Part shown: positions 886 to 55,337 of the stretch, piece after piece | Layout of the letters: each line of letters begins with the position of its first letter | Numbering within the stretch: position 1 is the stretch's first letter | DNA from: a virus | Taxonomy: Duplodnaviria > Heunggongvirae > Uroviricota > Caudoviricetes | Direction: 5' to 3' (one strand) | IMG/VR virus record: IMGVR_UViG_638275430_000001 | Location: 22,274 to 86,273 of that record | DNA: 64,000 bases | Position numbers and translations under genes: made by a program | Notes under the pieces: generated by a model | What the model saw: the letters and a program-made list of their open reading frames with translations, nothing else | Database searches by the model: none | What the model was told of the DNA's origin: nothing

Positions 886-907
886 GGCTCCCGAAGGAGC
901 CTTTATT
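886..907 (-). terminator. Hairpin terminator (ggctcc-ttcg-ggagcc + U-rich) after the 964-aa fiber gene
   Basis: ggctcccgaaggagcc followed by ttatgttt on the minus strand. Confidence 0.55.
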
Positions 908-3800
908 ACGCAAGTTCTAATCTGTGAGGTAGATATTGCAGTGCAGGCGCTGCACCCGATATCAAGTTATTATCGGTTGTTGCTGTACCAGAAGCGAATC
1001 CAGTTGCCGATATCAACTTGGGCAATTCAACCGCACCAGCGGTTTGCCATGTGTTTGCTGTTGTGTAATATTTGATTCCGAATGATCCGGTTGCACCGGC
1101 AGCGGCACCATCAAGATAATAAACAGTAACAGGTACAAACCAGATATTACCAGCAGCATCTTTGCCTAATATCAATTTGTAATATTCGGTCGGCACGGTT
1201 GCTGCTGCGACTGGGTCAACGTCACCTTGTCCACCGGTATATATATTATTCACGATAAACCCAGCGTTATTCAACGTGCTTTGTTTATTAGTTTCAAACT
1301 GAACTCCAGCAAATGCACCATCAAAGAATGTATCATTATCCGTACCGCCCACAACAGCACCAAATTTCTGAATTAAAAACCAGAATCTAGCTCGTTTCTC
1401 TGGGTCAGTTGAACCACATCGCAACGCAATATCACTGGCTGGTAGTGTATTCACATACGATTGGAAATAGAAATCAACTACGTGCTTTGTAGGACTATAA
1501 ACGTTTGTTGTATCTCTTGTAACGAAGTTCTTTGGATCACCAACTCCGGTATTAACGACTTCTGTTACAACTTTAGAACTTCCAATCTGACGAATCATCG
1601 CATAACTTGAACCTAATGAGTTGTCATCGCCATAAATTGTATGTCCACCACCGGTATCATAAGTAACTCGAACTTTTACCTGCATATCAGCCGTAGGTGT
1701 TACAATTGATCTAGCGATGGACTGTGTGCTAAAGTTTTCCGTTGATGTTGCTGCAACTTTACCTCCATATGTACCCGGTAATCTGTTATTAGCAGAATCA
1801 ACCCAGGTATATGCAAATCGTCCATTTGCCCCAAGTGAAGTAAACACATCACAAACTAACTCATACGTCTTATTTGCTTTCAGAGTAAACACACCGTTAT
1901 TATTAACAACTTCTCCAATCGAAGTCACATTAAACGCAAATGGCAAATCAAATTGTGTGTTGGTACCAGCAGCAGAATATCCAGTTGTGAATCTAGCAAG
2001 CAAGAAATCAGTTCTGTCGCCTTCTAATATAACAGTAGATCTATTATCAACAATATTTGAACCGTCAATTTCTTCTACCAGAATCCAAGTATCACCGCCA
2101 TCATTAGAGTTCTCGCCTCCAGCAACAATATTATGATTCTGTCCGGAATAAGCACAACGAAGACTGATCATATTATTTTCTGTTGGAGTAATATATGCAA
2201 TTCCAACCGGAGTATTTGTGTATGCAGTAGATCCCCAGATACTAGCGTACATCTGATCCGCTGGCCAAGACGCAGTTGTATCATTAAACACACCCCATCT
2301 AGCCCAACTTGTTCCTAATCCAGAAGCAGATATGTTATAAGTGATCTTATATGTATATCCAGATCTCAATGCAATTTGTGTTCCATTGCCTCTTGCAATA
2401 TTATCGCCAACGCTTCTAACTGTCGTCAGTGATAATATCGAGTTTAATGTTTGTGCCAATGCGGTAGCAGATAATTTAGCAAACATATGTCCACGAGCTG
2501 TGCCAGTTGCAGATGATGAAGTTAATTTCCAGTATCTAGTAGCAAGCACAAACTGATAACTATTACCAATGGGTGAGGTATAAGTTGCATTGTTTGCTGG
2601 ATTACTTGGGAACGTGATTGTTTCCATTTTGCCATCATAATCTGCCCATGAGTTATCCGGACGATGTAATAGAACTTGATTCAAGTTCATATCAAAGTAA
2701 ATCTTAACTCCGAATGTTGGTACACTATACGAATTTGTCAATCTATAGCTTGTGTATGACTGATTCATATCGACTGTGCCAAGTCTTACCCATTCTTTTC
2801 CAGCATTGAATATTTGACCAGGCGACACGTTTTTGGTACAAATATAAACTGCTTCCGCTAGTCCATATCTGACTAGATCTCCAGTATAATATTGACGGTC
2901 GATTTCAAATCCAACAATATTCAATGGCTCAAGTTTAGATAGATAATTCTGTAGACCGAATGCTGGCACATTACCAACCAACGGCATCCATTTTGTCATA
3001 TCCAGTTTGATTGTGTTTGTTGAATTCAAAGTCTGAGTCGAAATAACATAGCACATATAAAGTGTAATATCAGAATCATTCAACGCAATAACATCACCGA
3101 ATGTATAGTTAGTATTAACAGCGGGAACAACTCCTCTCCACACTGGTTGATATCTACCACCATTCAGTACCGGTCTGAATGTCTGTGTGTTACCAGAACC
3201 CCACGCGAAATTCGTACCAGCGACGATGGCCGCGTTGGCCTGCGCAATGATACCCTGATAAGATACAATCGCATTAGCATCGTATGAAAGACTGGTACTG
3301 AACACTGGTGCAGTTTTAAAGCCAGTCAGTTTTGTGAAGTAATTCAGTTCCGTAATTGCTTTGCCAACGCTAGTAATACTCGCACGATACAGATCTGTCC
3401 TGTAATAGAACATATCACCCTTGGCAATAACACGATCTAGTAGCGGGTTAATTTCATCCCAATCCGGTACGTTAGTAATTTCTGCCGCTGTTGTTAACTC
3501 TTTCCAGTTAGTTGATAATGTACCAACTACGAATGGAGTATCATACGGCATATCACCATTTGCGCGATATACTTTATTATCACGGTAACATAGATCGTCT
3601 TTGATCCAACTTCTTTGTTGTTTCCAATCCGGTACGTTTGCTGTTAATGCGGCTTCTGGCAATTGTGATTCCAGAATCTTACCATCGCTATCTGTAATAA
3701 CGATATGAGTGGAAGAAGCATCAGCCCAACGTCCATCATTCCACACTTTCGGAATGTTATCTTTGATTGGCTGTGTAACTAATGGTATTCTTTCTGCCAT
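906..3800 (-). CDS. Tail fiber protein, paralog B (964 aa). N-terminal ~115 aa homologous to the 1069-aa neighbour
   Basis: G/S/T/N-rich beta-type composition. Shared N-terminus MAERIPLV..PKVW..G.WADA. Late-promoter-like CTAAATAAT 27 nt upstream. SD caagaggattgacaaaATG. Confidence 0.75.
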   Translation of the reverse strand: MAERIPLVTQPIKDNIPKVWNDGRWADASSTHIVITDSDGKILESQLPEAALTANVPDWKQQRSWIKDDLCYRDNKVYRANGDMPYDTPFVVGTLSTNWKELTTAAEITNVPDWDEINPLLDRVIAKGDMFYYRTDLYRASITSVGKAITELNYFTKLTGFKTAPVFSTSLSYDANAIVSYQGIIAQANAAIVAGTNFAWGSGNTQTFRPVLNGGRYQPVWRGVVPAVNTNYTFGDVIALNDSDITLYMCYVISTQTLNSTNTIKLDMTKWMPLVGNVPAFGLQNYLSKLEPLNIVGFEIDRQYYTGDLVRYGLAEAVYICTKNVSPGQIFNAGKEWVRLGTVDMNQSYTSYRLTNSYSVPTFGVKIYFDMNLNQVLLHRPDNSWADYDGKMETITFPSNPANNATYTSPIGNSYQFVLATRYWKLTSSSATGTARGHMFAKLSATALAQTLNSILSLTTVRSVGDNIARGNGTQIALRSGYTYKITYNISASGLGTSWARWGVFNDTTASWPADQMYASIWGSTAYTNTPVGIAYITPTENNMISLRCAYSGQNHNIVAGGENSNDGGDTWILVEEIDGSNIVDNRSTVILEGDRTDFLLARFTTGYSAAGTNTQFDLPFAFNVTSIGEVVNNNGVFTLKANKTYELVCDVFTSLGANGRFAYTWVDSANNRLPGTYGGKVAATSTENFSTQSIARSIVTPTADMQVKVRVTYDTGGGHTIYGDDNSLGSSYAMIRQIGSSKVVTEVVNTGVGDPKNFVTRDTTNVYSPTKHVVDFYFQSYVNTLPASDIALRCGSTDPEKRARFWFLIQKFGAVVGGTDNDTFFDGAFAGVQFETNKQSTLNNAGFIVNNIYTGGQGDVDPVAAATVPTEYYKLILGKDAAGNIWFVPVTVYYLDGAAAGATGSFGIKYYTTANTWQTAGAVELPKLISATGFASGTATTDNNLISGAAPALQYLPHRLELA

Positions 3801-3863: not shown

Positions 3864-6800
3864 TTATGACATTTTTGTGATTTTCCACCACATTCTATTA
3901 GATGATGGAGCGGCATTTGCTCCATTACCAACGGTAACATCAATTTTTAACTTGATGTCTCCTGCGGCTGTATTTGATACCAACGCACATCCAACAGAAG
4001 CGTCGCCATCTTTCCAAGATGATGATGTAGGCCAGAAACTAATAGTTTGTATGCCTCCAGTTAATGTGGCATTACTAACACTACCTAATGTTGAGTAGTA
4101 GTATCCATCTGCAATAGATCCATTTGACATTGCCCATTGCCATTCAAAAATATATTTCCCAGCGGGAAGAGTTAACGTTGATGTACCAACACCACTGACA
4201 CCAATTGAGTCTATCAATGAACTGAATATTGCTGAATATCCCGTGCTTGCGCCGGTGTTGGAGAATGTTCCCATTGCCATCTTCGGACTAACATACGCGG
4301 CAACCGCTCCGCTGTTTAGTGTAGTGACATCAAATCCAATTCCCCCTAATCCAAGCGTATTACCTCCCCCGACTGTTAGCGTCAACGGCAATGCAGGTAA
4401 AACTCCTATTTGAAGCCATACTAAGTTGTTAGTTGGTCCATTTGCAACGTAAGTTCCGGTAACGGATCCGGCTACCCAAACTCCGACATAATCTCCGATT
4501 TTAACTTGTGAACCGGGAGAAACGGAAGTAGTTCCACTCGCAAATGTTGTTGTGCTAACGAGATCAAACTTACCACCAGTGCTAAAAGAACTTTCGCCTA
4601 TTTGCGGACGCATAACAACAACTGCGCCAGATGATCCGTAATTGGGAATTCTAACAGTAGACAAAATACCGTCTACGTTTATTCTTGACTGACGATCAAG
4701 AAACACGTTTGGTCCACCCATAGTAGCATTTGGAGCTGGATTTTGTCCTTTAGTAACTACTCCCGTACTACTAGCAGCAGTCAACGGTTTCCATTCCCCA
4801 GATCCATAAAGAACATAGTCCTGTGTATTAAGTGGAGCGGCAGCAAGAGCACCAGCTTTACCTTGAACTGTTGCGGTAGATCCCTGGAATATTGGGAATG
4901 CGCCGGCTGTTCCGGATATCTGAACAACGGTCCACTGACTATAACCGTCGGATGTAGATGGATATGTTTTGTCGCGACTTCTAACTAACGCAATTTCCAA
5001 ATTTTTCGTGGGTGTATAAATGAAATTACCACCCTGTCCTCCGGTTGCTTGTGATGTACCGGATGCATCAGAAATTAACAACTCACCTGGATCAATATAT
5101 AATCCGTCCGTGATGTTTCTCCATCTAAACGCGGCATATTCGGCTCCCGATACGTGTATAGATGTGGTAATCATATAAGTTTGATTTGCTTTTAGTTGCA
5201 CTCTGTTGTTTGTGCATGTTATTCCGTAATTCTTCACGGAAACAATTGGCATCAAACTACCGGTAGTTTGAACGGTCTGAGCAACAGCAGAAATTGTACC
5301 ACTAACAAAAGGAATTTCGGAACTCAATAATTCGGCTGGATCTTTCCATTCTCCGTCACCAAACAGAATCTTTTTCTCGGCACCCGCAACAGGAGCAGCA
5401 ACTACACCCGGTTTACCAGGAGTCGTATTAGTTGCGCCTTGAAAAATAGGAAGACTACCATTAGATCCAGATATTTGCATCACGCTATATGAGCTAAACG
5501 GCTCATGCAATGCAACCGCACCTCCAGTTCGTTTCAGATAAATCGTTTCATTCACTGTTGGAGAATAAATGAATGTTGTACTAAGTGATCCAGCTTCATT
5601 TGCGGTATGTGTTACTGTTATTCCACTGAACGGAGCGGGGCCAATTAGTCCGGTTGTATTAACTGCATTATTATTTGACCATTGAAACGTTGCTGATCCT
5701 AGTGTCGATACAAGATAAACATTCGTGGAAATCAAGTATGTCTGATTTGCTTTTAAATTGATTCCGTTCGAAGTTATTGACATATCGCGTGATTGTGTTG
5801 CTGATAATGCGACAACTGTTCCGTTCGATACGTTCGCCGCTTGTGTTAGTCTGCCCTGAATATAAGGAACATCTGATAATACACTTCCACCTCCGCTTCC
5901 AACTTTCTTCCATGTTGCACCCGTTGTTCCTTCTACAAATACGGTATTTGCGGGAATAGCCGCATTCGAGATATACAACTCTCCGTTGTTTCTAACGAGC
6001 TGCAATGCGTTGTAGGCTTGATTCGCAACGAAGTCAGTAACAGCCCCACCTCCCAGTGCTTTCCATGTTGCACCAGTCGTTCCAACAGCCCATAACGTAT
6101 TCGCAGGGATATCAGCGTTTGCGATATAAGTGTTTCCGTCTGTGTAGACGACTACTGTATTCTTTTTATATGCGCTCGCAAATTTCCAAACGTTATAAGT
6201 TAGATCGTCTGCTTTGGAAAGATAATTATCCAGTATAATCGGAGTATCGTTAATCAAAGGTGCCCAATATGCTGGAAGCGGAGTTGTTTCTGTTCCGATA
6301 GGAGGAGCAGATGCAGCAACACAAACGTAAAGAATATTGGATCTGGGCGTAGGGGCGATTACATCACCATAAAAGAAACCCTGACCATTAGCAGTCATCA
6401 CACCTCTCCAAGCATACTGCAAATATCCGTTGAATAGAACTGGACGCCATGTAACTGCTTGACCACTCGCTCCCCACTCAAATGGAACATTACCACCAAT
6501 GTTTGTGTTTGGTGTTACATAATATCCTTGCCAGCGAATAAGTTCACCGGCGGTATATGATTTGGTATACACATAAGATGGCGGCAACGTAAATCCTGTC
6601 AACTTTTCAAAATGATTAGTAGATGTTATTTCATTTCCTACGTTATTCGCCCGAGATCTATACAGCGAACCGCTGTAATAATACATTTCTCCTTCTCGAA
6701 TAGCGCGATCTATTCCAGGATTATATGCTGTCCAACTCGGAACGTTTGAAATTTCTGCCGCAGATGTAACGAGTTGCCAAGTCGCACCACCAGTAGATAT

Positions 6801-7073
6801 TACAAATGGAGTATTCGCAGGTATATCAGTATTAGCGCGATATACCTGTCCGATATGATAAGCCAACGCTCCTGCTTTCCATGACTTAGATTGTGCCCAT
6901 GTTGGAGCATTAGCAACAATTACTTCCTCAGGAATAACAGAACTTGAAATTTTACCATCGGTTCCCTTGGTAACAATATCAGTTGTTGGCGCATCAGCCC
7001 ATGCTCCATTTAGCCACACTTTTGGTGTAGTTGTTTTCGGAGGCTGTAAGACTAATGGAATTCTTTCTGCCAT
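3864..7073 (-). CDS. Tail fiber protein, paralog A (1069 aa) with internal tandem repeats
   Basis: N-terminus homologous to the 964-aa ORF. Three ~40-aa repeats of AN.DIPANT..V..T.GATW..V. Two tandem ~175-aa domains (aa ~405-580 and ~590-765). CTAAATAC upstream. SD caagaggacaataaaaATG. Confidence 0.75.
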   Translation of the reverse strand: MAERIPLVLQPPKTTTPKVWLNGAWADAPTTDIVTKGTDGKISSSVIPEEVIVANAPTWAQSKSWKAGALAYHIGQVYRANTDIPANTPFVISTGGATWQLVTSAAEISNVPSWTAYNPGIDRAIREGEMYYYSGSLYRSRANNVGNEITSTNHFEKLTGFTLPPSYVYTKSYTAGELIRWQGYYVTPNTNIGGNVPFEWGASGQAVTWRPVLFNGYLQYAWRGVMTANGQGFFYGDVIAPTPRSNILYVCVAASAPPIGTETTPLPAYWAPLINDTPIILDNYLSKADDLTYNVWKFASAYKKNTVVVYTDGNTYIANADIPANTLWAVGTTGATWKALGGGAVTDFVANQAYNALQLVRNNGELYISNAAIPANTVFVEGTTGATWKKVGSGGGSVLSDVPYIQGRLTQAANVSNGTVVALSATQSRDMSITSNGINLKANQTYLISTNVYLVSTLGSATFQWSNNNAVNTTGLIGPAPFSGITVTHTANEAGSLSTTFIYSPTVNETIYLKRTGGAVALHEPFSSYSVMQISGSNGSLPIFQGATNTTPGKPGVVAAPVAGAEKKILFGDGEWKDPAELLSSEIPFVSGTISAVAQTVQTTGSLMPIVSVKNYGITCTNNRVQLKANQTYMITTSIHVSGAEYAAFRWRNITDGLYIDPGELLISDASGTSQATGGQGGNFIYTPTKNLEIALVRSRDKTYPSTSDGYSQWTVVQISGTAGAFPIFQGSTATVQGKAGALAAAPLNTQDYVLYGSGEWKPLTAASSTGVVTKGQNPAPNATMGGPNVFLDRQSRINVDGILSTVRIPNYGSSGAVVVMRPQIGESSFSTGGKFDLVSTTTFASGTTSVSPGSQVKIGDYVGVWVAGSVTGTYVANGPTNNLVWLQIGVLPALPLTLTVGGGNTLGLGGIGFDVTTLNSGAVAAYVSPKMAMGTFSNTGASTGYSAIFSSLIDSIGVSGVGTSTLTLPAGKYIFEWQWAMSNGSIADGYYYSTLGSVSNATLTGGIQTISFWPTSSSWKDGDASVGCALVSNTAAGDIKLKIDVTVGNGANAAPSSNRMWWKITKMS

Positions 7074-9810: not shown

Positions 9811-9830
9811 GGGAGCCGAAGCTCCCTTTT
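9811..9830. terminator. Hairpin gggagc-cgaa-gctccc flanked by A-run and T-run (bidirectional)
   Basis: aaaaagggagccgaagctccctttt. Separates the early block from the late structural block. Confidence 0.7.
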
Positions 9831-9832
9831 AT

Positions 9833-10225
9833 TTAGATCGAACAGACTGGTGTCAGCGAAACTTCCTCAGATTGACTGGCCGCTTCTGGCTCGCTTTCCG
9901 TTACTTTCTGATACGCTTCCATTACTAGCTCGTCATAACGCTGTTTGGAGCTCATCCAGAGCGATTCCAGAACATCCTTAGCGATAGGTTTTTGTAGAGT
10001 CAGAACACGGAGCTTTTCGATTGCGTAGATATATCCGTCTTTGTTGCAAACATGAAGACATTCTTCCGCGTGAAGTCTCAGACGCTCAATCTCTTTCCGA
10101 TTCTTGGCAAGATATTTCTTACTCTTCTTTTCTACCATTGATTTAATCGCGGCTTGTTCACGCTCTTTCGCTTCTTCGATTTCGCGTTGATCTTCGGCAA
10201 TTACATCTTCAATACGTTCGTTCAT
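9833..10225 (-). CDS. Hypothetical protein (130 aa, Lys/Glu-rich)
   Basis: ORF follows the gp55 operon on the same strand. Confidence 0.5.
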   Translation of the reverse strand: MNERIEDVIAEDQREIEEAKEREQAAIKSMVEKKSKKYLAKNRKEIERLRLHAEECLHVCNKDGYIYAIEKLRVLTLQKPIAKDVLESLWMSSKQRYDELVMEAYQKVTESEPEAASQSEEVSLTPVCSI

Positions 10226-16899: not shown

Positions 16900-17145
16900 C
16901 TATTTAGAACGAACATAAACATTTTCTCGCTTCACAATTCCACGAACTAGCTCCAATCGAGCTAACATTTGATTCGGATGTAACGGCGACGTGATATATA
17001 ACGCATCACTTTCCATATCAACGAGTTTTCGATACGCTTTCAGAGCGTTTTCGTGTTGAATATAGAGTTCTTCAACTGCGGCTTTATTGTAGCCGCAGAC
17101 TTCCCAACGATTTAGAGTTTCCGGTAAAATCACGATTAACCCCAC
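16900..17145 (-). CDS. Hypothetical protein (81 aa)
   Basis: Same-strand ORF overlapping the upstream gene by 10 nt. Confidence 0.45.
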   Translation of the reverse strand: MGLIVILPETLNRWEVCGYNKAAVEELYIQHENALKAYRKLVDMESDALYITSPLHPNQMLARLELVRGIVKRENVYVRSK

Positions 17146-18042: not shown

Positions 18043-19173
18043 TTAAACTTCTAATTCTTCAAAGAATGTTTCATCGAGAGTCGAATCAACTTGTCCGATC
18101 AGATAGCTAGACAACTCAGCCTCTTGGGCAGCGACTTGAACGGAATCGCTGTTAAGCCACTTGCGAATCCACGGCAGAGGGTGTTTCATACCGATGTTCA
18201 GTTCTTCTGGCGCGGGGAGACCAGCAGATCGCATACGGCTTACAGTCAGATAATCGATGTAATCCAACATACTGGACAGACTCAAGCCGGGAATAGTCAC
18301 ATTACCAAGCAAGTCTCTTGCCCATTCTTTCTCTTGTTCAGCAACTTCCAAGAAGATTTGCACCGCTTTATGTTCGAGGCGTTTGGCGATCTCGTACATT
18401 TCGGAATCATCTTCTGCATTCTGCCAAGCACGAATCAGATACTGGGTGCCTTTCAGGTGAAGCTGTTCATCCCGCGCAATCAGACGCATGATCTTAGCGT
18501 TGCCTTCCATGATACCACGCTCACCGAATGAGAACGTGCAAGCAAAGCTAACATAGAAACGAATCGCTTCCAAAGCGTTTACGGCGTGCATTGCGAGATA
18601 TAACGCTTCTTTTACTTTAGTCAGTTGTGCAACTCGCAACTCCGGAGAGAATACAGATTGAGTCAACAGATCATAAGTTTTCAGCTCTTTGATCAGATTG
18701 TCATAATACTGAGTTACAGAAGTGGCACGTGCCATAATCTTACTGTCAAGCAGAATCCTATCAAACACAGCAGACGGATCAACATAGAGATTCCGCATGA
18801 TGTGGGTATAAGAACGGCTATGAATTGTCTCACTGAAACTCCATGTGGTGATCCAAGTTTCAAGCGCGACATCAGATACGATTGGCAAGAATACCAAGTT
18901 AGGTGCGCGACCTTGTACCGAGTCAAGCAGACTTTGATATTTCAAGTTTTGAGTGAAAACATGTTGTTCGGCTTCACTCAGTTGATTATAGTCGATTGCA
19001 TCCTTAGACAAATCCACTTCTTCGGGACGCCAGAAAAATGAAAGTTGCTTTTCTGTAAGCTTATCAATTGCCGGATGTTTTACTGTTTCATATCGAGCCA
19101 ATCCCATTGCTTCGCCCAAGAACAGAGGCGCTTTCATATGATCAACTACATTTTTATTAAATACGGTATCCAT
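18043..19173 (-). CDS. nrdB: Ribonucleotide reductase class Ia beta subunit NrdB (intact, no intron)
   Basis: 376 aa. Di-iron ligand region and tyrosyl-radical region; E. coli-like length. Confidence 0.9.
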   Translation of the reverse strand: MDTVFNKNVVDHMKAPLFLGEAMGLARYETVKHPAIDKLTEKQLSFFWRPEEVDLSKDAIDYNQLSEAEQHVFTQNLKYQSLLDSVQGRAPNLVFLPIVSDVALETWITTWSFSETIHSRSYTHIMRNLYVDPSAVFDRILLDSKIMARATSVTQYYDNLIKELKTYDLLTQSVFSPELRVAQLTKVKEALYLAMHAVNALEAIRFYVSFACTFSFGERGIMEGNAKIMRLIARDEQLHLKGTQYLIRAWQNAEDDSEMYEIAKRLEHKAVQIFLEVAEQEKEWARDLLGNVTIPGLSLSSMLDYIDYLTVSRMRSAGLPAPEELNIGMKHPLPWIRKWLNSDSVQVAAQEAELSSYLIGQVDSTLDETFFEELEV

Positions 19174-19190
19174 TTTTATTCCTTGTTAAA

Positions 19191-19206
19191 AGGGGACGAA
19201 TCCCCT
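19191..19206 (-). terminator. Hairpin aggggat-tcg-tcccct + UUUU between nrdA-b and nrdB (terminator/attenuator)
   Basis: aaaaggggacgaatccccttatc. Confidence 0.45.
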
Positions 19207-19215
19207 TATCAGTTA

Positions 19216-20187
19216 TCAGACCTTACAAACATCACAAGAAGAATCTTGTTCTTCGGTACCATCGGCACCATCGCGAGTGTTCGAGTAATAAAGAGACTTA
19301 ACGCCGTGTTTCTGTGCTCTTGAAATATCTTTCAGAACAACTTTCATCGGGATCTTCTCACCCGGATACACAGCAGGATCATAATAAGTATTTGCACTAA
19401 TCATTTGATCCACAAACTTCTGCATGATAGCTACAATGTCCAAGTAACCCTTCATGCCGTGTTTGGTCATCTGCCAAGCTGTCTCATACTCGCTACCAAG
19501 CATGTCTACCTCAGGCACTAGCTGATTAAAGACACCATCTTTCGATTGCTTGGTGCTCACTAGGCCGCGCGGTGGCTCGATACCGTTTGTGCTGTTGGTG
19601 ATCTGTGAACTACTCTCACAAGGCATAAATGCGCTTAGAGTATCGTTTCGCAGGCCGTGCTGTTTGATCTCAGCTCGCAGCCATTCCCAATCCATTTTCA
19701 GATCATTCGGAACGATATTGTCAACGTTCTTATTGTACCAGTCAATCGGTAACAGTCCATCAGCCCATTTTGTCTTATGATGCCACTCGTTTGCACCGCG
19801 TTCTTTCGCCAGCTCCATAGACGCTACCAAGTTCGCAAACTGCATCATTTCCATGGTGCGGTGAACAAGCTTGTTTGCATTTCCGCTAGAGTAGTTAACA
19901 AAATTCTTCGCCAAGAAATAAGCAAAGTTTGTTACACCCATGCCGAGTGCGCGACGCTTCTTGGCTGCCAGTGCTTGAACGACGGGATAATCCTGATAGT
20001 CAAGCAAGTTATCGAGTGCGCGAACAGCAGCGCGAGCAACGTTTAGGAAGTCTTCATAACCCTCAATTGCGCCGAGATTATACGCCGCTAAAGTGCAAAG
20101 GCTTATTTCCGAAACATCTACCTCAATTTCTACCGTGGTATATTCTTCATCTTCGTATACTTCGTAAATTCTTTCATGTTCGATCAT
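19216..20187 (-). CDS. nrdA: Ribonucleotide reductase alpha subunit, C-terminal fragment (NrdA-b)
   Basis: 323 aa. Begins with a 26-aa extension, then EISLCTLAAYNLGA, collinear with E. coli NrdA from ~aa 455 to the C-terminal CxxC tail (SSCDVCKV). Confidence 0.85.
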   Translation of the reverse strand: MIEHERIYEVYEDEEYTTVEIEVDVSEISLCTLAAYNLGAIEGYEDFLNVARAAVRALDNLLDYQDYPVVQALAAKKRRALGMGVTNFAYFLAKNFVNYSSGNANKLVHRTMEMMQFANLVASMELAKERGANEWHHKTKWADGLLPIDWYNKNVDNIVPNDLKMDWEWLRAEIKQHGLRNDTLSAFMPCESSSQITNSTNGIEPPRGLVSTKQSKDGVFNQLVPEVDMLGSEYETAWQMTKHGMKGYLDIVAIMQKFVDQMISANTYYDPAVYPGEKIPMKVVLKDISRAQKHGVKSLYYSNTRDGADGTEEQDSSCDVCKV

Positions 20188-20887
20188 TTTCTCTAAATCT
20201 CCTATTGAGAATAAATCTGGAGATTCCGGTTTCTTTCATGGCAATGCCTATGCTTGGATATTCAATGCCGCCAATGACAATTTTTATACCGTTCGGTGCC
20301 GGCTTTCCTAAATTAGTTGCTCTTGACTTAGGCACATATTCTTTATTGTGTTCATCATCACCAAGCTTATAGAGTTTCCACCCATGGTGATTACTTCTTT
20401 TACCGCGACAAACTGCACTCATTGTACTGGGATTTAATCCGTGCTTCAAGCAGAAATCTTTTAACCCAGAAACAATGTGTTCTTCTCCCGTAGGAGACAC
20501 GAATCGCCATAGATAAGAAAGCTTTTCTCTTTGAACATCAGACATTGGCTTTCCTTTGTTCGGAGCAATACTTCCAGTTTTGACTTCGGATAAAGCCTTA
20601 GCGAGTTTGACACGATTTGATTCATGCATATATGCATAAACTCTACTATGTTCTTTATTTCCAACTCGCATCATGTTATAAGCGAATATCAGTTTGTTGC
20701 TTTTATAAATCTTAGTCAATAAATGATGAACAACATAGTGTGCTTTAGCAGTTAGATATACCAAATTGTCGTCACTATCATCACCTCCCATACATCTTGG
20801 GATAATATGATGTTTCTCTTTGTAACCGGAGATCTCCGAATTTTTAAATTTGTTGATAATTAAGTCGTGTATTCTCTTATAATTCAT
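20174..20887 (-). CDS. HNH homing endonuclease (MobE-like) inserted between the nrdA fragments
   Basis: HHIIPRCMGGDDSDDNLVYLTAKAHYVVH HNH motif. 237 aa. SD agagggtgcaaatATG. Confidence 0.8.
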   Translation of the reverse strand: MNYKRIHDLIINKFKNSEISGYKEKHHIIPRCMGGDDSDDNLVYLTAKAHYVVHHLLTKIYKSNKLIFAYNMMRVGNKEHSRVYAYMHESNRVKLAKALSEVKTGSIAPNKGKPMSDVQREKLSYLWRFVSPTGEEHIVSGLKDFCLKHGLNPSTMSAVCRGKRSNHHGWKLYKLGDDEHNKEYVPKSRATNLGKPAPNGIKIVIGGIEYPSIGIAMKETGISRFILNRRFRENDRT

Positions 20888-20931
20888 ATTTGCACCCTCT
20901 TAACGTACACGACTATTTAGAGGGTGCAAAT
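20888..20931 (-). promoter_or_regulatory. 13-bp perfect inverted repeat hairpin sequestering the HNH gene SD, with an embedded late-type promoter CTAAATAG in the loop
   Basis: atttgcaccctct ... agagggtgcaaat. The loop contains the reverse complement of ctatttag. Confidence 0.55.
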
Positions 20932-20933
20932 TT

Positions 20934-22355
20934 TTAGTATCTCAGAGACTTATATTGATCCGTCGCTACCATAAGTTTGAACTTATCAACTTCGGACTTT
21001 TTGACTTTAAACAACATCTTTTCTTTCTTTCCCATAGGGACTGTCGGCAGCGCGATTTCGATGCACAGATTACCCATACGAATAGGCTCTTTGTACGGAG
21101 TAGCCGAGTTAACGTTATCAACGAACATCGGATAAATGCGACCGGTGCCAGTTCTTTCTTGTGCGAACAGATTGAACAACTCGGAGGCTTTGATACGCTT
21201 CTTACGACACCAAGGCTCGTTTTCCAGCATTTCGTACAGCTCTTTGAACTTCACCGGATCTTTATAAAAGAGATCGTAAAGCTCGCCGTTTTGAACGTCT
21301 GGACTAAAGAGCGTGATATAGTCGTCATTTTTCAGACGCTCGAAAAACAGCTTGTTGATTTGGATACCGTAGTCAAGCTGGCGAATTCGATTTTCTTCCA
21401 CGCCCTTGTTGTTTTTCAGAACAAGGATTTTTTCAACTTCAAGATGCCACATTGGATAGTAAAGAGTAGCAGCGCCACCGCGTACACCACCCTGTGAGCA
21501 ACTTTTTACCGCAGTCTGGAAATATTTCCAGAACGGAATAATACCAGTGTGGCGAACTTCACCACTTCGAATGCGAGAACCTTCGGCACGAATAGCGCCA
21601 CCGTTGATACCGATACCAGCGCGTTTGCTAATATAGTCAACGATTGAACTTGCGGTAGCGTTAATGCTATCGAGTTCGTCGCCGCTTTCGATCTTCACGC
21701 ATGAGCTAAACTGGCGAGTCGGGGTTCGAACACCAGCAAGAATTGGCGTCGGTAGACTCAGTTTGCCCAACGATGTTACGTCATAAAAGTTTTTAACTTT
21801 AGCGATTCTATCTGTTTTTTCGTCTTGATGCAAGCACATTGCAACAAGCATATACAGAATTTGAGGTGTTTCGTAAATCTGATCGGTACTACGATCTTTC
21901 GCCAGGTACTTCTCTTTAAACTGCATTACGCCAGCATAAGCAAGATCAAAATCGCGATCATGCTTGATATAGGCATTCAGTTCATTGAATTCATCATCTG
22001 TCCATTTGATGGCAAGATCTTTATCATAGATGCCGTCTTGTACCAAGTCAAGTGTGTGTCGTTTCAGATGAATCGGGTCAAACTGATTGTAAACGTCTTT
22101 GCGAATCGCATACATTTGCAGACGAGCAGCGACGTATTGATAATCGGATTGTTCAATAGAGATACGATCTGCCGCAAATTTAATTGCCAGCTTCTGAATG
22201 TTCTTTGTGCTCATGCCGTCGGTGATAGAAGGCATAATACCGTTCAGGATTTCATTCGGATCGATTCGAGTTCCAGCAGTAGCGAATCCCAGAATTTTCA
22301 ACAGCTTTTTCGGCTCAAAATTCTCGGTTATCCCACTTGATTTTCTTACTAACAT
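20934..22355 (-). CDS. nrdA: Ribonucleotide reductase alpha subunit, N-terminal fragment (NrdA-a); ATP-cone plus catalytic core to ..CIEIALPT, then a 34-aa tail
   Basis: Collinear with NrdA aa 1 to ~440. Start MLVRKSSGITENFEP chosen (ATG 22353-22355). The track start 22397 has no SD and lies inside the promoter -10. Confidence 0.8.
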   Translation of the reverse strand: MLVRKSSGITENFEPKKLLKILGFATAGTRIDPNEILNGIMPSITDGMSTKNIQKLAIKFAADRISIEQSDYQYVAARLQMYAIRKDVYNQFDPIHLKRHTLDLVQDGIYDKDLAIKWTDDEFNELNAYIKHDRDFDLAYAGVMQFKEKYLAKDRSTDQIYETPQILYMLVAMCLHQDEKTDRIAKVKNFYDVTSLGKLSLPTPILAGVRTPTRQFSSCVKIESGDELDSINATASSIVDYISKRAGIGINGGAIRAEGSRIRSGEVRHTGIIPFWKYFQTAVKSCSQGGVRGGAATLYYPMWHLEVEKILVLKNNKGVEENRIRQLDYGIQINKLFFERLKNDDYITLFSPDVQNGELYDLFYKDPVKFKELYEMLENEPWCRKKRIKASELFNLFAQERTGTGRIYPMFVDNVNSATPYKEPIRMGNLCIEIALPTVPMGKKEKMLFKVKKSEVDKFKLMVATDQYKSLRY

Positions 22356-22397
22356 GTTACCCCGTTGTGTTATGTGTTGGAGAGTTTCATTATACAT

Positions 22398-22440
22398 CAG
22401 TCACAAAGAATGTAAACAACTTACATGTTTACAGAGTTAA
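22398..22440 (-). promoter_or_regulatory. T4-type early promoter for nrdA (GTTTACA-N16-TATAAT) with dyad tgtaaaca..tgtttaca over the -35
   Basis: Minus strand reads ctctGTAAACAtgtaagttGTTTACAttctttgtgactgatgTATAATgaaa. Confidence 0.5.
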
Positions 22441-22443
22441 AAA

Positions 22444-22461
22444 ATCCCGCATCAGCGGGAT
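22444..22461 (-). terminator. Hairpin atcccgc-tgat-gcgggat + U6 terminator
   Basis: aaaaaatcccgcatcagcgggatc. Confidence 0.7.
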
Positions 22462-22934
22462 CCCTTGTAAAGCAAAACATCTTGATAAATCGGAGTCAAA
22501 ATGCTCAACCAGTGATTGGCTAGTTCTATCCGAGCTTGATAATAAGCTACTTGATCTTCTTTATAGTAGCCATTTTTCTCACTATGATATTGATCGGTAC
22601 AATCTCCAGTGAGATAGTTTAGCTTAATTACATGTCCGAGATTACCGGACCAATATTTATAGTATTTCAAGAACTCGACATTTGCCATCTTCGTCCTGAT
22701 TTGAAAGCAAAGTCCACGGCGAATATGATCGCGATTGATCTTACATTCGATGATATCATTTAAAGTCTTGATATCGTTCGCGAGTTCTTTGATATCAGCA
22801 ACACCATTCCAGAAGATGATGGACTTTCGTTGACCACTGGAATATTTGGCATTCAGTCTCGCTTGAGTTGCCGCAAGTTCAGCCAGTCGCTTGGCTCGGT
22901 TCGGCATCAAAAAATCAATAATTGTTTTCAGCAT
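22452..22934 (-). CDS. Paralog family member A (160 aa); one copy of the novel ~100-aa 'RHW' domain (..INRDHIRRGLC..KYWSG..GH...YYQARIELANHWL)
   Basis: Tandem array of homologous genes. Shared motifs GRITR.EC..GLC, KYWSG, ARLELARHWL. Confidence 0.6.
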   Translation of the reverse strand: MLKTIIDFLMPNRAKRLAELAATQARLNAKYSSGQRKSIIFWNGVADIKELANDIKTLNDIIECKINRDHIRRGLCFQIRTKMANVEFLKYYKYWSGNLGHVIKLNYLTGDCTDQYHSEKNGYYKEDQVAYYQARIELANHWLSILTPIYQDVLLYKGSR

Positions 22935-22936
22935 GA

Positions 22937-23407
22937 TTACACATTTTGAGTGAAATGATTGTCAACGAAAGTCATTACATCAAGCCAGTGACGAGCCAGT
23001 TCCAAACGAGCTTCGTAAAACTTAACGTTCTTTTCGTAATAGCGTTCTTCGGCATATTGCATTTCGGGAGAATGGCCATCTTTGATGTCAATCAAAAACA
23101 GTTGTCCACACGTTTCTTTGTCCCAGTGACGATACATCGCCATAATTGGATCAGTCCGCAGAATACCAGCAACTTCGAACCCAACATGATAACAGACTCC
23201 ACAGGCAATTCTATTTCGCGCCAGTGTTCGATCTGTGATCTTATACAAAGTTTTCATTGCATCGGCGTATCGTTCTGGCTTTTCGATTCGCAATTTAAGA
23301 AGATCATAATACTTTGTCAAGTTAGCATCGTCCAGAAACTTGAGTTTCAGACGCTCGTTCTTGCTCATGAAAACGGATTTGATTTTTGCTCGCAGAACAG
23401 TAAACAT
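22937..23407 (-). CDS. Paralog family member B (156 aa, more divergent; ..YEARLELARHWL)
   Basis: C-terminal FYEARLELARHWLDV. Consensus early promoter/leader. Confidence 0.6.
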   Translation of the reverse strand: MFTVLRAKIKSVFMSKNERLKLKFLDDANLTKYYDLLKLRIEKPERYADAMKTLYKITDRTLARNRIACGVCYHVGFEVAGILRTDPIMAMYRHWDKETCGQLFLIDIKDGHSPEMQYAEERYYEKNVKFYEARLELARHWLDVMTFVDNHFTQNV

Positions 23408-23463
23408 GATATAACCCTCTCTATAAGATAATGCCAGTATACGCTACTGGCATTAGGTGTCAA

Positions 23464-24327
23464 TTAGTTTTTAGCGATAGCCATCACATTTTCAATGACT
23501 TTCAGCCAATGCCGAGCAAGTTCCAGACGCGCTTCATAGTATGCGGTATCATACTTCATCGAACAATAAACTTCGTCCTTGAATTGCTTGATTGCTTGGT
23601 TCCGCTTGTGATCTTCGATTGTGTAGTGTTTCGCACGAGGATCAGGCATAAAGTTCTTGACTTCATCGGTTTCAAGCAGGATGATGTAACCTTTCCAACC
23701 ACTCCAGAATTTGTAGTCTTTAAGGATATACTCGCCATTCAGCTTGACTTTAATCATTTCACACAGACCTTCTTTGAGCTGATCGCGTGTGATTTTACCG
23801 ATAATAACATCGCGCAGAATTTCGCGAGATTCTTCCCATTCAGAACGATTAAAAACACAATGCCGCACCAGATCATTCATATGAGCCTGACGTTCAACAG
23901 CATCGCAATACTCAGATTGCAGTTTCAGAATATAACGCAGCCAGTGACGAGCCAGTTCCAGACGAGCTTCCCAGTATTCATCATTACCTTCGGACTCTTC
24001 ATCTGCTTCTTGATGAAACTGTGCGATGGCTTCATTCAACGGATCGTCCATTTCATCGGGATTACCAATCAGAATGCTGTGACCTTCCCAGCCGCTCCAG
24101 AACTTGTATCCGTTCAAGATCTTTTCATTGCACAAATCTACACCACCGGCCTTTGAGCCGACAATACGACATATGCCAATCTTGCATTCTTCGCGGGTGA
24201 TACGTCCGTCGATGATATCATTCAGTTTCGCTTTGGATACGTCGAAACGTTCTTTGTTCTTGACGTAATATTTTACGTCTTCGGAAACAGTCGGGTCATT
24301 GATGATTCGGGTTTGCAGTTCGTTCAT
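23464..24327 (-). CDS. Paralog family member C (287 aa) with two tandem copies of the domain
   Basis: GRITREECKIGICRIV..YKFWSGWEGH..YWEARLELARHWL, then GKITRDQLKEGLCEMI..YKFWSGWKGY..YYEARLELARHWL. Confidence 0.65.
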   Translation of the reverse strand: MNELQTRIINDPTVSEDVKYYVKNKERFDVSKAKLNDIIDGRITREECKIGICRIVGSKAGGVDLCNEKILNGYKFWSGWEGHSILIGNPDEMDDPLNEAIAQFHQEADEESEGNDEYWEARLELARHWLRYILKLQSEYCDAVERQAHMNDLVRHCVFNRSEWEESREILRDVIIGKITRDQLKEGLCEMIKVKLNGEYILKDYKFWSGWKGYIILLETDEVKNFMPDPRAKHYTIEDHKRNQAIKQFKDEVYCSMKYDTAYYEARLELARHWLKVIENVMAIAKN

Positions 24328-24387
24328 GATTTATTCCTCAGTTGTTTGATGTGGACATCCTATCATGTCCACATTTGCTGTCAATCG

Positions 24388-24819
24388 TTATTGCAAAACA
24401 ATTTTAGTTTCGATGAAATTGATCCAGTGACGAGCAAGTTCCAGGCGAGCTTCCCAGTACGGATCATTGTCACCGTATTCAGACTCTTCCAAATCTTCTT
24501 CTTCATGAAACTGTTCGATTGCTTGAGGCAGATGATCGTGATACCGACGGGACTCTTCGGTAGTTTCACCGACATACACACAATAGCCTCGCATACCACT
24601 CCAATATTTGTAGCCTTCGAAGACGGAATGATCTGTCAACATATCGCAGTTAATCAGATTGCACAAGCCACCGCGGCACTCATATCGAGTAATGCGACCT
24701 TCTACAACATCTTTGAGGATGTAATACGCTTTCATAATATTTGCATTCATAAACATGATTATTTCCTTAGCAACTAGATACGATAAAGCCAGTCTACGCG
24801 AGACTGGCTTAGGTGTCAA
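24388..24819 (-). CDS. Paralog family member D (143 aa)
   Basis: GRITRYECRGGLCNLI..YKYWSGMRGY..YWEARLELARHWI. Confidence 0.6.
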   Translation of the reverse strand: MTPKPVSRRLALSYLVAKEIIMFMNANIMKAYYILKDVVEGRITRYECRGGLCNLINCDMLTDHSVFEGYKYWSGMRGYCVYVGETTEESRRYHDHLPQAIEQFHEEEDLEESEYGDNDPYWEARLELARHWINFIETKIVLQ

Positions 24820-24820
24820 A

Positions 24821-25315
24821 TCAATTATGAAGTTTTTTCATCTTTTTTGGCATTTCTTTGTTGAACACTGTGCAGAGTTCAGCCTTAGTCATGCCGTCAT
24901 TGTACGCGAAACCGTTTGATTGTAACTCAGCAATCATCGCCGGTTTATCTTGACGAGCGAAACGCTTTTTCAAATCTGGCAACAGTTTCGGGTGAATATC
25001 GTTTTCTTTGGTATCTTGTTCGAGATACACGATCAAAGTTTTTAGTTGTGTGATGTAATCGACGTTCCTAGACGCCAGACCGGAGCGCATAAACTCATGT
25101 CTAACCATACCTTCAAACTTGTTACAAAAGCAACATAGCAAACCGCGCACACGGCCAGCTTGCGGACCATTCAATTCGTGATCGTGATCAAGATGATTTT
25201 TGTTAATCTCTTTGTCAAGTTCGCGTTTGCATAGAGGGCAAATGCCATTTTGTGCATGGTACAGTTTTTCTTTTGCTGCATCATAGGTTTTGGGAGTCAA
25301 GATCATTAGAGTCAT
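24821..25315 (-). CDS. 49: Endonuclease VII (Holliday junction resolvase), gp49
   Basis: Collinear with T4 gp49: ..YDAQNG.C.LC.REL.....NHLDHDHELNGP.AG.VRGLLC..CN..EG...H.F.RSGL. 164 aa. Confidence 0.85.
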   Translation of the reverse strand: MTLMILTPKTYDAAKEKLYHAQNGICPLCKRELDKEINKNHLDHDHELNGPQAGRVRGLLCCFCNKFEGMVRHEFMRSGLASRNVDYITQLKTLIVYLEQDTKENDIHPKLLPDLKKRFARQDKPAMIAELQSNGFAYNDGMTKAELCTVFNKEMPKKMKKLHN

Positions 25316-25343
25316 TCCATTTTGATAGTATGACTCTATTTAG
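25307..25343 (-). promoter_or_regulatory. Hairpin (tagagtca-N15-tgactcta) occluding the gene 49 start codon, with late-type promoter CTAAATAG overlapping the 5' arm
   Basis: Minus strand reads aaCTAAATAGAGTCAtactatcaaaatggaATGACTCTAatg. Parallels T4 gene 49 early-hairpin/late-promoter control. Confidence 0.55.
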
Positions 25344-30137: not shown

Positions 30138-30191
30138 AACGACTCCGTTTTGTATCTGGGACCAATATAACATGGTCCCAGATAGAGTCAA

Positions 30192-44365: not shown

Positions 44366-44899
44366 CTAATATTCGGTGTCAAGCACTTTTCTAGCGTGAT
44401 CCACCTTTTTTACACATTGAATCAATTCGCTAATCTTGTCTTTCTTGATAACAAGCGTGGTAAACTCACCACCGCTGTTCATATCAAAGATAACATCTTG
44501 CTTAGACGTTCTAACACCAAGCCTAGAGTTCTTGATCTTCATTCTGCCAACCTGTATGTTAGCTGATTTGAATCTCGACTCGGTAACAATCGAATCAGAC
44601 CGTTCCATGAAACTAACGAATCGATCATGATCTACTCGATTCGGCAACTGAAACCAAACTTTCTTATTGAAATTCTCAGTTACCTCCATAACAGTCGTGT
44701 GATCTTTGATATAAAAAGAGATTGTGTAAAACTGATTTACACCTACACCGGAACAAGCAACAACTTCCTTATTACCGGCGTTTAGTCTTGAATAGAACTC
44801 TTGATCACTCACAATAGCAGCGTTGGCAGATGTTACTGCCAACGCGATTGCAAGATTACTCCAGAGATTCTTCACATTCTTCAGGCAGAACGGAATCAT
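44366..44899 (-). CDS. Secreted protein (signal peptide; start MIPFCLKNVKNLW...AVTSANAA)
   Basis: SD gaggaagaggtgctgtgtgATG. Signal-peptide-like N-terminus. Confidence 0.45.
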   Translation of the reverse strand: MIPFCLKNVKNLWSNLAIALAVTSANAAIVSDQEFYSRLNAGNKEVVACSGVGVNQFYTISFYIKDHTTVMEVTENFNKKVWFQLPNRVDHDRFVSFMERSDSIVTESRFKSANIQVGRMKIKNSRLGVRTSKQDVIFDMNSGGEFTTLVIKKDKISELIQCVKKVDHARKVLDTEY

Positions 44900-55259: not shown

Positions 55260-55337
55260 GATGTATTCCTCAGAGTTTTAGTTGAGATTGTTTCGTCTTG
55301 ATGTGGCTATAGTATCAATAGCCACATCAGCGGTCAA

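Follow-up and report, generated by a model that had tools for sequence, protein, structure and literature searches.

nrdA is split by a homing endonuclease gene in phage Aeh1

The DNA analysed here, a stretch of 64 kb (hereafter the window), matches Aeromonas phage Aeh1 (AY266303.2 / NC_005260), which is 100% identical to window bases 19000-22500 over their full length; window positions are obtained by subtracting 22273 from Aeh1 positions. Between positions 1 and 40000 the annotated genes lie exclusively on the minus strand. There, the gene for the large subunit of RNR is split by mobE into nrdA-A and nrdA-B, every one of them on the minus strand:

24821..25306, minus strand: gene 49 (endonuclease VII; GenBank; Pfam Endonuclease_7, E = 1.9e-16)
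20934..22355, minus strand: nrdA-A, RNR large subunit N-terminal fragment (GenBank, Pfam)
20174..20887, minus strand: mobE, 'MobE homing endonuclease, H-N-H family' (GenBank; free-standing gene, 237 aa)
19216..20187, minus strand: nrdA-B, RNR large subunit C-terminal fragment, downstream of mobE (GenBank, Pfam)
18043..19173, minus strand: nrdB (GenBank)
20110..21040, minus strand: approximate extent of the insert relative to the intact nrdA of relatives (alignment with Ah1, avDM12-TAAL and PX29)

nrdA-A and nrdA-B encode the two halves of the RNR barrel (Pfam). MobE matches PHROG 655 'homing endonuclease' (E = 2.7e-45) and is 45-48% identical to homing endonucleases of T4-like coliphages; its match to the Pfam HNH family is sub-threshold (17.2 bits versus a cutoff of 21.4), and an HH...N...H motif is seen at residues 26-54. 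The 3' end of mobE overlaps the start of nrdA-B by 14 nt (20174-20187, minus strand), an overlap of endonuclease and downstream gene that has also been described for endonuclease-fractured genes (Dassa et al., NAR 2009). Four adjoining hypothetical genes, Aeh1ORF046c-049c (22452-24756, minus strand), separate gene 49 from nrdA-A and form a tandem paralogue family with a common C-terminal motif, (Y/F)(Y/W)(E/Q)AR(L/I)ELA(R/N)HW, present twice in ORF048c.

Alignment with Ah1, avDM12-TAAL and PX29, which have an intact nrdA and 83-91% nucleotide identity to Aeh1, delimits an insert of about 0.9 kb. It comprises a non-homologous C-terminal tail of NrdA-A (33 aa), the hairpin and promoter described below, mobE, and an N-terminal tail of NrdA-B that is likewise non-homologous; the hairpin and promoter module thus belongs to the insert. 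nrdA is also intact in the AsFcp phages, phiAS5 and phiWae14, making the insert a presence/absence polymorphism at a conserved gene. The insert boundaries agree with the report that the NrdA tails are needed for reassembly of the enzyme (Crona et al. 2010, PMC3045599), in which the origin of the tails is also discussed.

A 13-bp hairpin is predicted to bury the mobE ribosome-binding site

Between the nrdA-A stop codon and the mobE start lies an RNA hairpin, and a late promoter motif overlaps it:

20919..20931, minus strand: hairpin 5' arm ATTTGCACCCTCT (RNA AUUUGCACCCUCU), present only on RNA begun upstream (early read-through)
20901..20918, minus strand: 18-nt loop AAATAGTCGTGTACGTTA (RNA AAAUAGUCGUGUACGUUA), holding 5 nt from the end of the promoter core and, at ~20908, the predicted late start
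20888..20900, minus strand: hairpin 3' arm AGAGGGTGCAAAT (RNA AGAGGGUGCAAAU), which holds the Shine-Dalgarno sequence and adjoins the mobE AUG
20900-20893, minus strand: mobE Shine-Dalgarno-like sequence AAGAGGGUG (RNA AGAGGGUG), within the 3' arm
20914..20920, minus strand: CTAAATA, core of an Aeh1-type late promoter, which stands 33 nt ahead of the mobE ATG and astride the border of 5' arm and loop

A first reading of this DNA, made from sequence only, had described a perfect 13-bp inverted repeat around an 18-nt loop, with the Shine-Dalgarno sequence in a 3' arm that adjoins the ATG, and this description is exact, on the minus strand. The GAGG of the Shine-Dalgarno sequence lies 8 nt from the mobE AUG (20887-20885). 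On the other side, the nrdA-A stop codon UAA (20936-20934) is followed by AA and then by the 5' arm from 20931, a gap of 2 nt.

When loops of 3-30 nt are allowed, every other perfect inverted repeat in the 64-kb window is shorter than the one at mobE. Among 100 dinucleotide-preserving shuffles of the window, 13 bp was reached in three, with a mean of 0.03 stems of at least 13 bp per shuffled window. A 55-nt RNA spanning the hairpin folds with -20.9 kcal/mol, compared with -6.3 +/- 2.1 kcal/mol for its shuffles (z = -6.9), and an 81-nt version gives z = -5.3. The hairpin is therefore real and improbable by chance, and the folding energy of the early transcript, which the sequence-only reading had named as a check, came out in its favour, with the Shine-Dalgarno sequence buried in read-through RNA. 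An Rfam search returned nothing at the gathering score, its sole match being RAGATH-25 in the mobE coding region (19.4 bits versus 49, E = 0.42).

Other long perfect inverted repeats in the window are two of 12 bp, at 30153-30184 (in the gap between ORF061c and ORF062c) and at 55299-55329, and one of 11 bp at 23429-23455, which overlaps a strong sigma-70-like promoter (23463-23436) in the gap between ORF047c and ORF048c.

An Aeh1-type late promoter motif overlaps the hairpin

Ahead of its late genes Aeh1 has CTAAATA, starting at -12, in place of the T4 consensus TATAAATA (Nolan et al. 2006). We checked the 12 late promoters that could be extracted from the 15 predicted in that work, a list from which the mobE and gene 49 sites are absent. 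Each of the 12 contains CTAAATA. The sequence-only reading had placed in the mobE loop a motif that it also found ahead of the late structural genes, and this stands in part. The last 5 nt of CTAAATA do lie in the loop, but its C and T pair in the 5' arm; and the 7-mer CTAAATA is indeed common to both sets, but the 8-mer with a trailing G, CTAAATAG, is absent from the late-gene promoters, where the next base is A or C in 12 of 12. Because the base after the mobE motif is G, the mobE late promoter may be weak.

By count, CTAAATA is not enriched in the window (8 observed versus 8.2 by chance). All eight occurrences, however, lie on the coding strand, five are wholly intergenic although intergenic DNA makes up 5.7% of the sequence (P about 3e-5), and six stand 26-37 nt 5' of the next ATG; the spacing of 33 nt at mobE equals that at ORF025c and ORF026c. 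The motif is thus informative by strand and position only, not by count. With C20920 at -12, as in the consensus placement of Nolan et al., we infer that the exact late +1 of mobE would be at ~20908, inside the loop.

Aeh1ORF025c (906-3800) and ORF026c (3864-7073), both on the minus strand, are very large adjacent ORFs of 964 and 1069 aa. Their upstream terminators, CTAAATA promoters, leaders and first codons are nearly the same, and they look like a duplicated late-gene pair. Two further CTAAATA motifs (9830-9836 and 16901-16907, minus strand) share bases with the stop codons of two genes, a-gt.4 and ORF038c; an intrinsic terminator hairpin lies directly 3' of each motif. If active, these motifs would start transcripts just ahead of a terminator; they may be non-functional, born of a ...C TAA ATA... 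stop context.

Read-through and late RNAs are predicted to differ in access to the mobE start

Read-through RNA is expected from a promoter upstream of nrdA-A:

22389..22416, minus strand: strong sigma-70-like early promoter (TTTACA-16-TATAAT) just upstream of nrdA-A, from which read-through RNA with the entire hairpin would start

It coincides with the early promoter predicted by Nolan et al. at Aeh1 44655-44704, and an early promoter drives the nrdA operon (PMC3045599). Between nrdA-A and mobE, no terminator is called by our own scan or in the TransTerm list of Nolan et al. Because no early promoter of their own is predicted for nrdA-B and nrdB between Aeh1 40290 and 44655, both genes would need read-through. 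The TransTerm list (Nolan et al., supplement) does hold a 5-bp terminator between nrdA-B and nrdB (19192-19205, minus strand), nrdB being without a predicted promoter of its own; if this terminator is functional, nrdB expression would fall relative to nrdA.

On a 143-nt read-through RNA, the mobE Shine-Dalgarno sequence has a mean probability of being unpaired of 0.007, compared with 0.37-0.48 on RNAs begun at 20906-20910, from which the 5' arm is missing. The predicted late leader folds with only -3 to -4 kcal/mol, and in the thermodynamic model its Shine-Dalgarno sequence is still only about half open.

A crude genome-wide switch score, comparing Shine-Dalgarno accessibility on read-through and late RNA, was noisy and did not single out mobE, several true late genes scoring similarly. 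The largest contrast belonged to the leader of gene 20 (portal), which lies outside the window at ~4800-4855 of locus L009 (Aeh1 ~154800-154855): its accessibility was 0.08 on read-through RNA versus 0.68 on late RNA. In this model, the contrast suggests that gene 20, a true structural gene, may follow the same switch logic.

The layout recurs at gene 49 and at a metagenomic locus

A second instance, which the sequence-only reading had pointed out at gene 49 (25307-25343), has the layout claimed and gains support from comparison among phages:

25307..25343, minus strand: gene 49 layout, with CTAAATA at 25343-25337 overlapping the hairpin 5' arm and a predicted late +1 at ~25331

The hairpin (25338-25307) reads UAGAGUCAU-A-CUAU-CAAA-AUGG-A-AUGACUCUA, with 9+4 bp, and adjoins the annotated ATG at 25306; its folding energy is -13.6 kcal/mol (z = -5.6). 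Transcription from the predicted +1 at ~25331 would remove the 5' arm. Another ATG, at 25315, falls within an arm and is in frame in Aeh1, whereas the in-arm ATG of the relatives is out of frame; with the frame kept in Aeh1 alone, gene 49 is likely to start at 25306.

Besides Aeh1, seven Aeromonas T4-like phages and RB18, a phage of the T4 type, keep a late-promoter motif overlapping a hairpin at the gene 49 start. Across the nine phages, three unrelated stem sequences occupy the same position. A stem (A)UAGAGUCAU / AUGACUCUA(U) is common to six phages; that of Ahp1_CNU-2021 is wholly different (AAAUAAGGUCUCG / CGAGACCUUAUU), but still reaches into CTAAATA and stops 3 nt short of the ATG; and RB18 has a third, which overlaps a late-promoter-like sequence and adjoins the AUG. 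Each leader was folded separately and compared with its shuffles, and all z-scores lay between -3.7 and -6.6. Column-wise counting of pairs on a MAFFT alignment of the leaders was tried and rejected, since it put the two divergent stems out of structural register. BLAST homology to Aeh1 starts at the promoter motif in PX29, avDM12-TAAL, the AsFcp phages and Ah1, and the upstream neighbour genes differ.

The predicted switch layout at gene 49 is thus supported by comparison. Its retention through full replacement of the stem is good comparative support for the mechanism, and the leaders are a ready set of natural variants for testing it.

For mobE itself, megablast found the gene in Aeh1 only, and tblastn with MobE found nothing above 48% identity over the full length. 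Eleven IMG/VR and metagenome loci encode proteins 35-60% identical to MobE over the N-terminus, with heterogeneous leaders. No homologous mobE leader was found in the collections searched (megablast, tblastn, and IMG/VR and metagenome scans), which leaves the mobE stem without covariation support. A similar layout was present at one of the 11 loci, L022 (~775-823 of metagenome contig Ga0114958_10037366), where the mobE-like ORF is 55% identical to MobE over 73 aa: a T4-type late promoter motif, TATAAATA, is directly followed by a hairpin, CUCUGGC...GUCAGAG, over the Shine-Dalgarno region. As judged from its sequence, this locus appears to be an independent case of the promoter-plus-hairpin layout. 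Because the leaders are heterogeneous and that of L022 alone is similar, the design recurs but is not passed down together with the protein family.

A probable temporal translational switch for mobE

We conclude, with a probability of roughly 90%, that the hairpin and the late promoter form a temporal translational switch for mobE of Aeh1. Early in infection, the operon of nrdA-A, mobE, nrdA-B and nrdB would be transcribed from the promoter upstream of nrdA-A, and on this read-through RNA the 13-bp stem would form and hide the mobE Shine-Dalgarno sequence, leaving MobE untranslated or barely translated while the RNR genes are translated. Late in infection, RNA polymerase with the gp55 sigma factor would read CTAAATA at the junction of 5' arm and loop and begin transcription about 12 nt downstream, in the loop; the resulting RNA would lack the 5' arm, its Shine-Dalgarno sequence would be free, and MobE could be made. 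Three elements of an arrangement of the I-TevI type were found in silico: a stem containing the Shine-Dalgarno sequence, a late promoter that removes the 5' arm, and early read-through with no terminator. The likeness to I-TevI drawn by the sequence-only reading, a hairpin hiding the ribosome-binding site with a late start inside it, agrees with the folding and motif analyses and with published summaries.

This gene has been studied before. Gibb and Edgell's abstract of 2007 is said to name a late promoter specific to Aeh1, along with an RNase E-like internal site and a putative stem-loop, and their work of 2009 reportedly included enzymatic probing of the hairpin and a fusion with reduced beta-galactosidase activity. 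A promoter and RNA-structure arrangement similar to that of I-TevI is ascribed to Aeh1 mobE, and a late promoter is reported for it, in the review of Edgell, Gibb and Belfort (citing Gibb & Edgell 2007, 2009); Uzan & Miller state that initiation of translation was shown to be lowered by the structure; Dassa et al. (NAR 2009) state that the hairpin was shown to inhibit translation via sequestration of the ribosome binding site; and MobE expression is described as inhibited on the operon mRNA (Crona et al. 2010, PMC3045599). As far as these accounts go, the mobE mechanism is already published and has been addressed experimentally for the same locus (Gibb & Edgell, J Bacteriol 2007, 2009).

To this account our analysis contributes the sequence, the statistics of folding, the placement of the motif and the position of the module within the insert, and the late promoter and the inhibition of translation by the hairpin come from the literature as so summarized. 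Our additions are the chance statistics, the accessibility calculations and the insert boundaries drawn against newer relatives, together with a negative operator test, a caveat concerning ribosome termination (both below) and the comparative support from gene 49. The switch would allow a selfish endonuclease gene to be tolerated in an essential early operon by deferring its translation to late infection, a point made and tested by Gibb and Edgell according to those summaries, and nothing new follows from it for mobE. A validated regulatory design was recoverable by sequence-only reading.

Alternative readings of the hairpin

Ribosomes ending translation of nrdA-A could unwind the outer helix and briefly expose the mobE Shine-Dalgarno sequence, yielding low early MobE. 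The hairpin would then tune mobE rather than silence it, and such coupling, which we consider unlikely, would be an addition to the switch and no replacement for it. The geometry would permit it, with the nrdA-A UAA at 20936-20934 and the stem from 20931: when 9-11 nt past the stop codon were held single-stranded, the fold weakened from -20.9 to about -8 kcal/mol and the probability of the Shine-Dalgarno sequence being unpaired rose from 0.01 to 0.39-0.52. With 5-7 nt held open, however, the Shine-Dalgarno sequence remained fully paired, so that the effect hinges on how far the ribosome actually reaches. Moreover, the GC-rich core containing the Shine-Dalgarno sequence is the innermost part of the stem, and the description of MobE as inhibited on the operon mRNA (PMC3045599) also speaks against coupling. 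On this reading, early MobE would be a small fixed fraction of NrdA-A, and the position of the stop codon, which comes from the insertion-derived tail, would have been selected for regulation; we doubt both. In a related reading, to be judged jointly and likewise improbable, the promoter-in-hairpin would be an old Straboviridae device that has been rebuilt repeatedly, kept at gene 49 although the stem there was wholly replaced, and arisen independently at mobE.

Stable intercistronic hairpins often protect RNA or mark sites of processing, which counts for a reading of the mobE stem as a stability or processing element, serving mainly to guard the upstream nrdA-A RNA against 3' exonucleases or to flag where RNA is processed, its overlap with the Shine-Dalgarno sequence being incidental. 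Such an element would leave unexplained that the stem ends exactly at the AUG and covers the Shine-Dalgarno sequence, and that the late promoter sits precisely where it takes the 5' arm away. Both features of the switch also recur at gene 49 in many phages, and the RNase E-like site reported within the mobE transcript lies away from the hairpin, as the review of Edgell, Gibb and Belfort summarizes it. We regard this reading as very unlikely.

We give very little credence to a protein operator, in which MobE would repress its own late promoter by way of the palindrome, as I-TevI does. The palindrome does overlap the late promoter, but HNH homing endonucleases of the MobE type act as monomers on asymmetric sites and are not known to act on palindromes. 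Local alignment of the hairpin with the insertion region in the intact nrdA of three relatives scored 7-8, compared with a shuffled mean of 8.3-8.5; being no better than shuffles, the alignment reveals no likeness to the presumed homing site. The precedent is I-TevI autorepression at an operator akin to its homing site; by analogy the idea has been carried over to I-TevII and I-TevIII (Edgell, Gibb and Belfort review).

An intrinsic terminator, whether in sense between nrdA-A and mobE or antisense on the plus strand, has next to no chance of being the right reading, and a Rho-independent terminator at the hairpin was rejected: the 3' arm on the plus strand is followed by TTTTAG, but this TTTT faces a region devoid of plus-strand genes (the annotated genes at 1-40000 being all minus), the coding strand has AUAUGAAUUAUAAG and no U tract after the stem, a loop of 18 nt is unusual for a terminator, neither our scan nor TransTerm called a terminator, and nrdA-B and nrdB require read-through.

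Comparison with known systems

The temporal switch proposed for mobE has several counterparts. Like T4 I-TevI, I-TevII, I-TevIII and segB, mobE combines a late promoter with a structure that hides the ribosome-binding site. In I-TevI, the structure forms on early and middle transcripts only, the placement of the late promoter precluding it on late RNA (review, 'Mobile DNA elements in T4 and related phages'). As with I-TevI, the regulated homing endonuclease sits in an early nucleotide-metabolism operon. Unlike I-TevI, which resides in a group I intron, Aeh1 mobE is free-standing and splits a protein-coding gene; its promoter is CTAAATA rather than the T4 promoter TATAAATA; and it has no detectable operator resembling a homing site. 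The mobE gene of T4 itself lacks a dedicated promoter; its control comes instead from a weak terminator located within the coding region.

For endonuclease-fractured genes, hairpins directly upstream of endonuclease starts have been described, ten of them with a late-promoter element (Dassa et al., NAR 2009). Aeh1 mobE resembles these loci in having a hairpin at the endonuclease start within a split gene and an endonuclease that overlaps the downstream fragment; unlike Aeh1, they come from metagenomes, concern for the most part split inteins and endonucleases of other families, and are predicted only.

At gene 49, the leaders of Aeh1 and RB18 match the precedent of the T4 gene 49 leader (Barth et al., Genetics 1988), as far as that work is summarized. 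In RB18, AATAAATA overlaps the 5' arm of a hairpin that is stable, at -18 to -20 kcal/mol according to which segment is folded, and whose 3' arm holds the Shine-Dalgarno sequence, the same layout as in Aeh1 with unrelated stem sequences. Barth et al. 1988 is cited among T4 genes under sequestration of the ribosome-binding site in a review that, in the passage concerned, prints '39', its reference 60 being the gene 49 paper.

Finally, the mobE element of Aeh1 (Gibb & Edgell, J Bacteriol 2007, 189:4648; 2009, 191:2409) is the same element in the same genome as the one analysed here. The descriptions match and, at the level of detail in the published summaries, we see no difference of substance between that element and ours.
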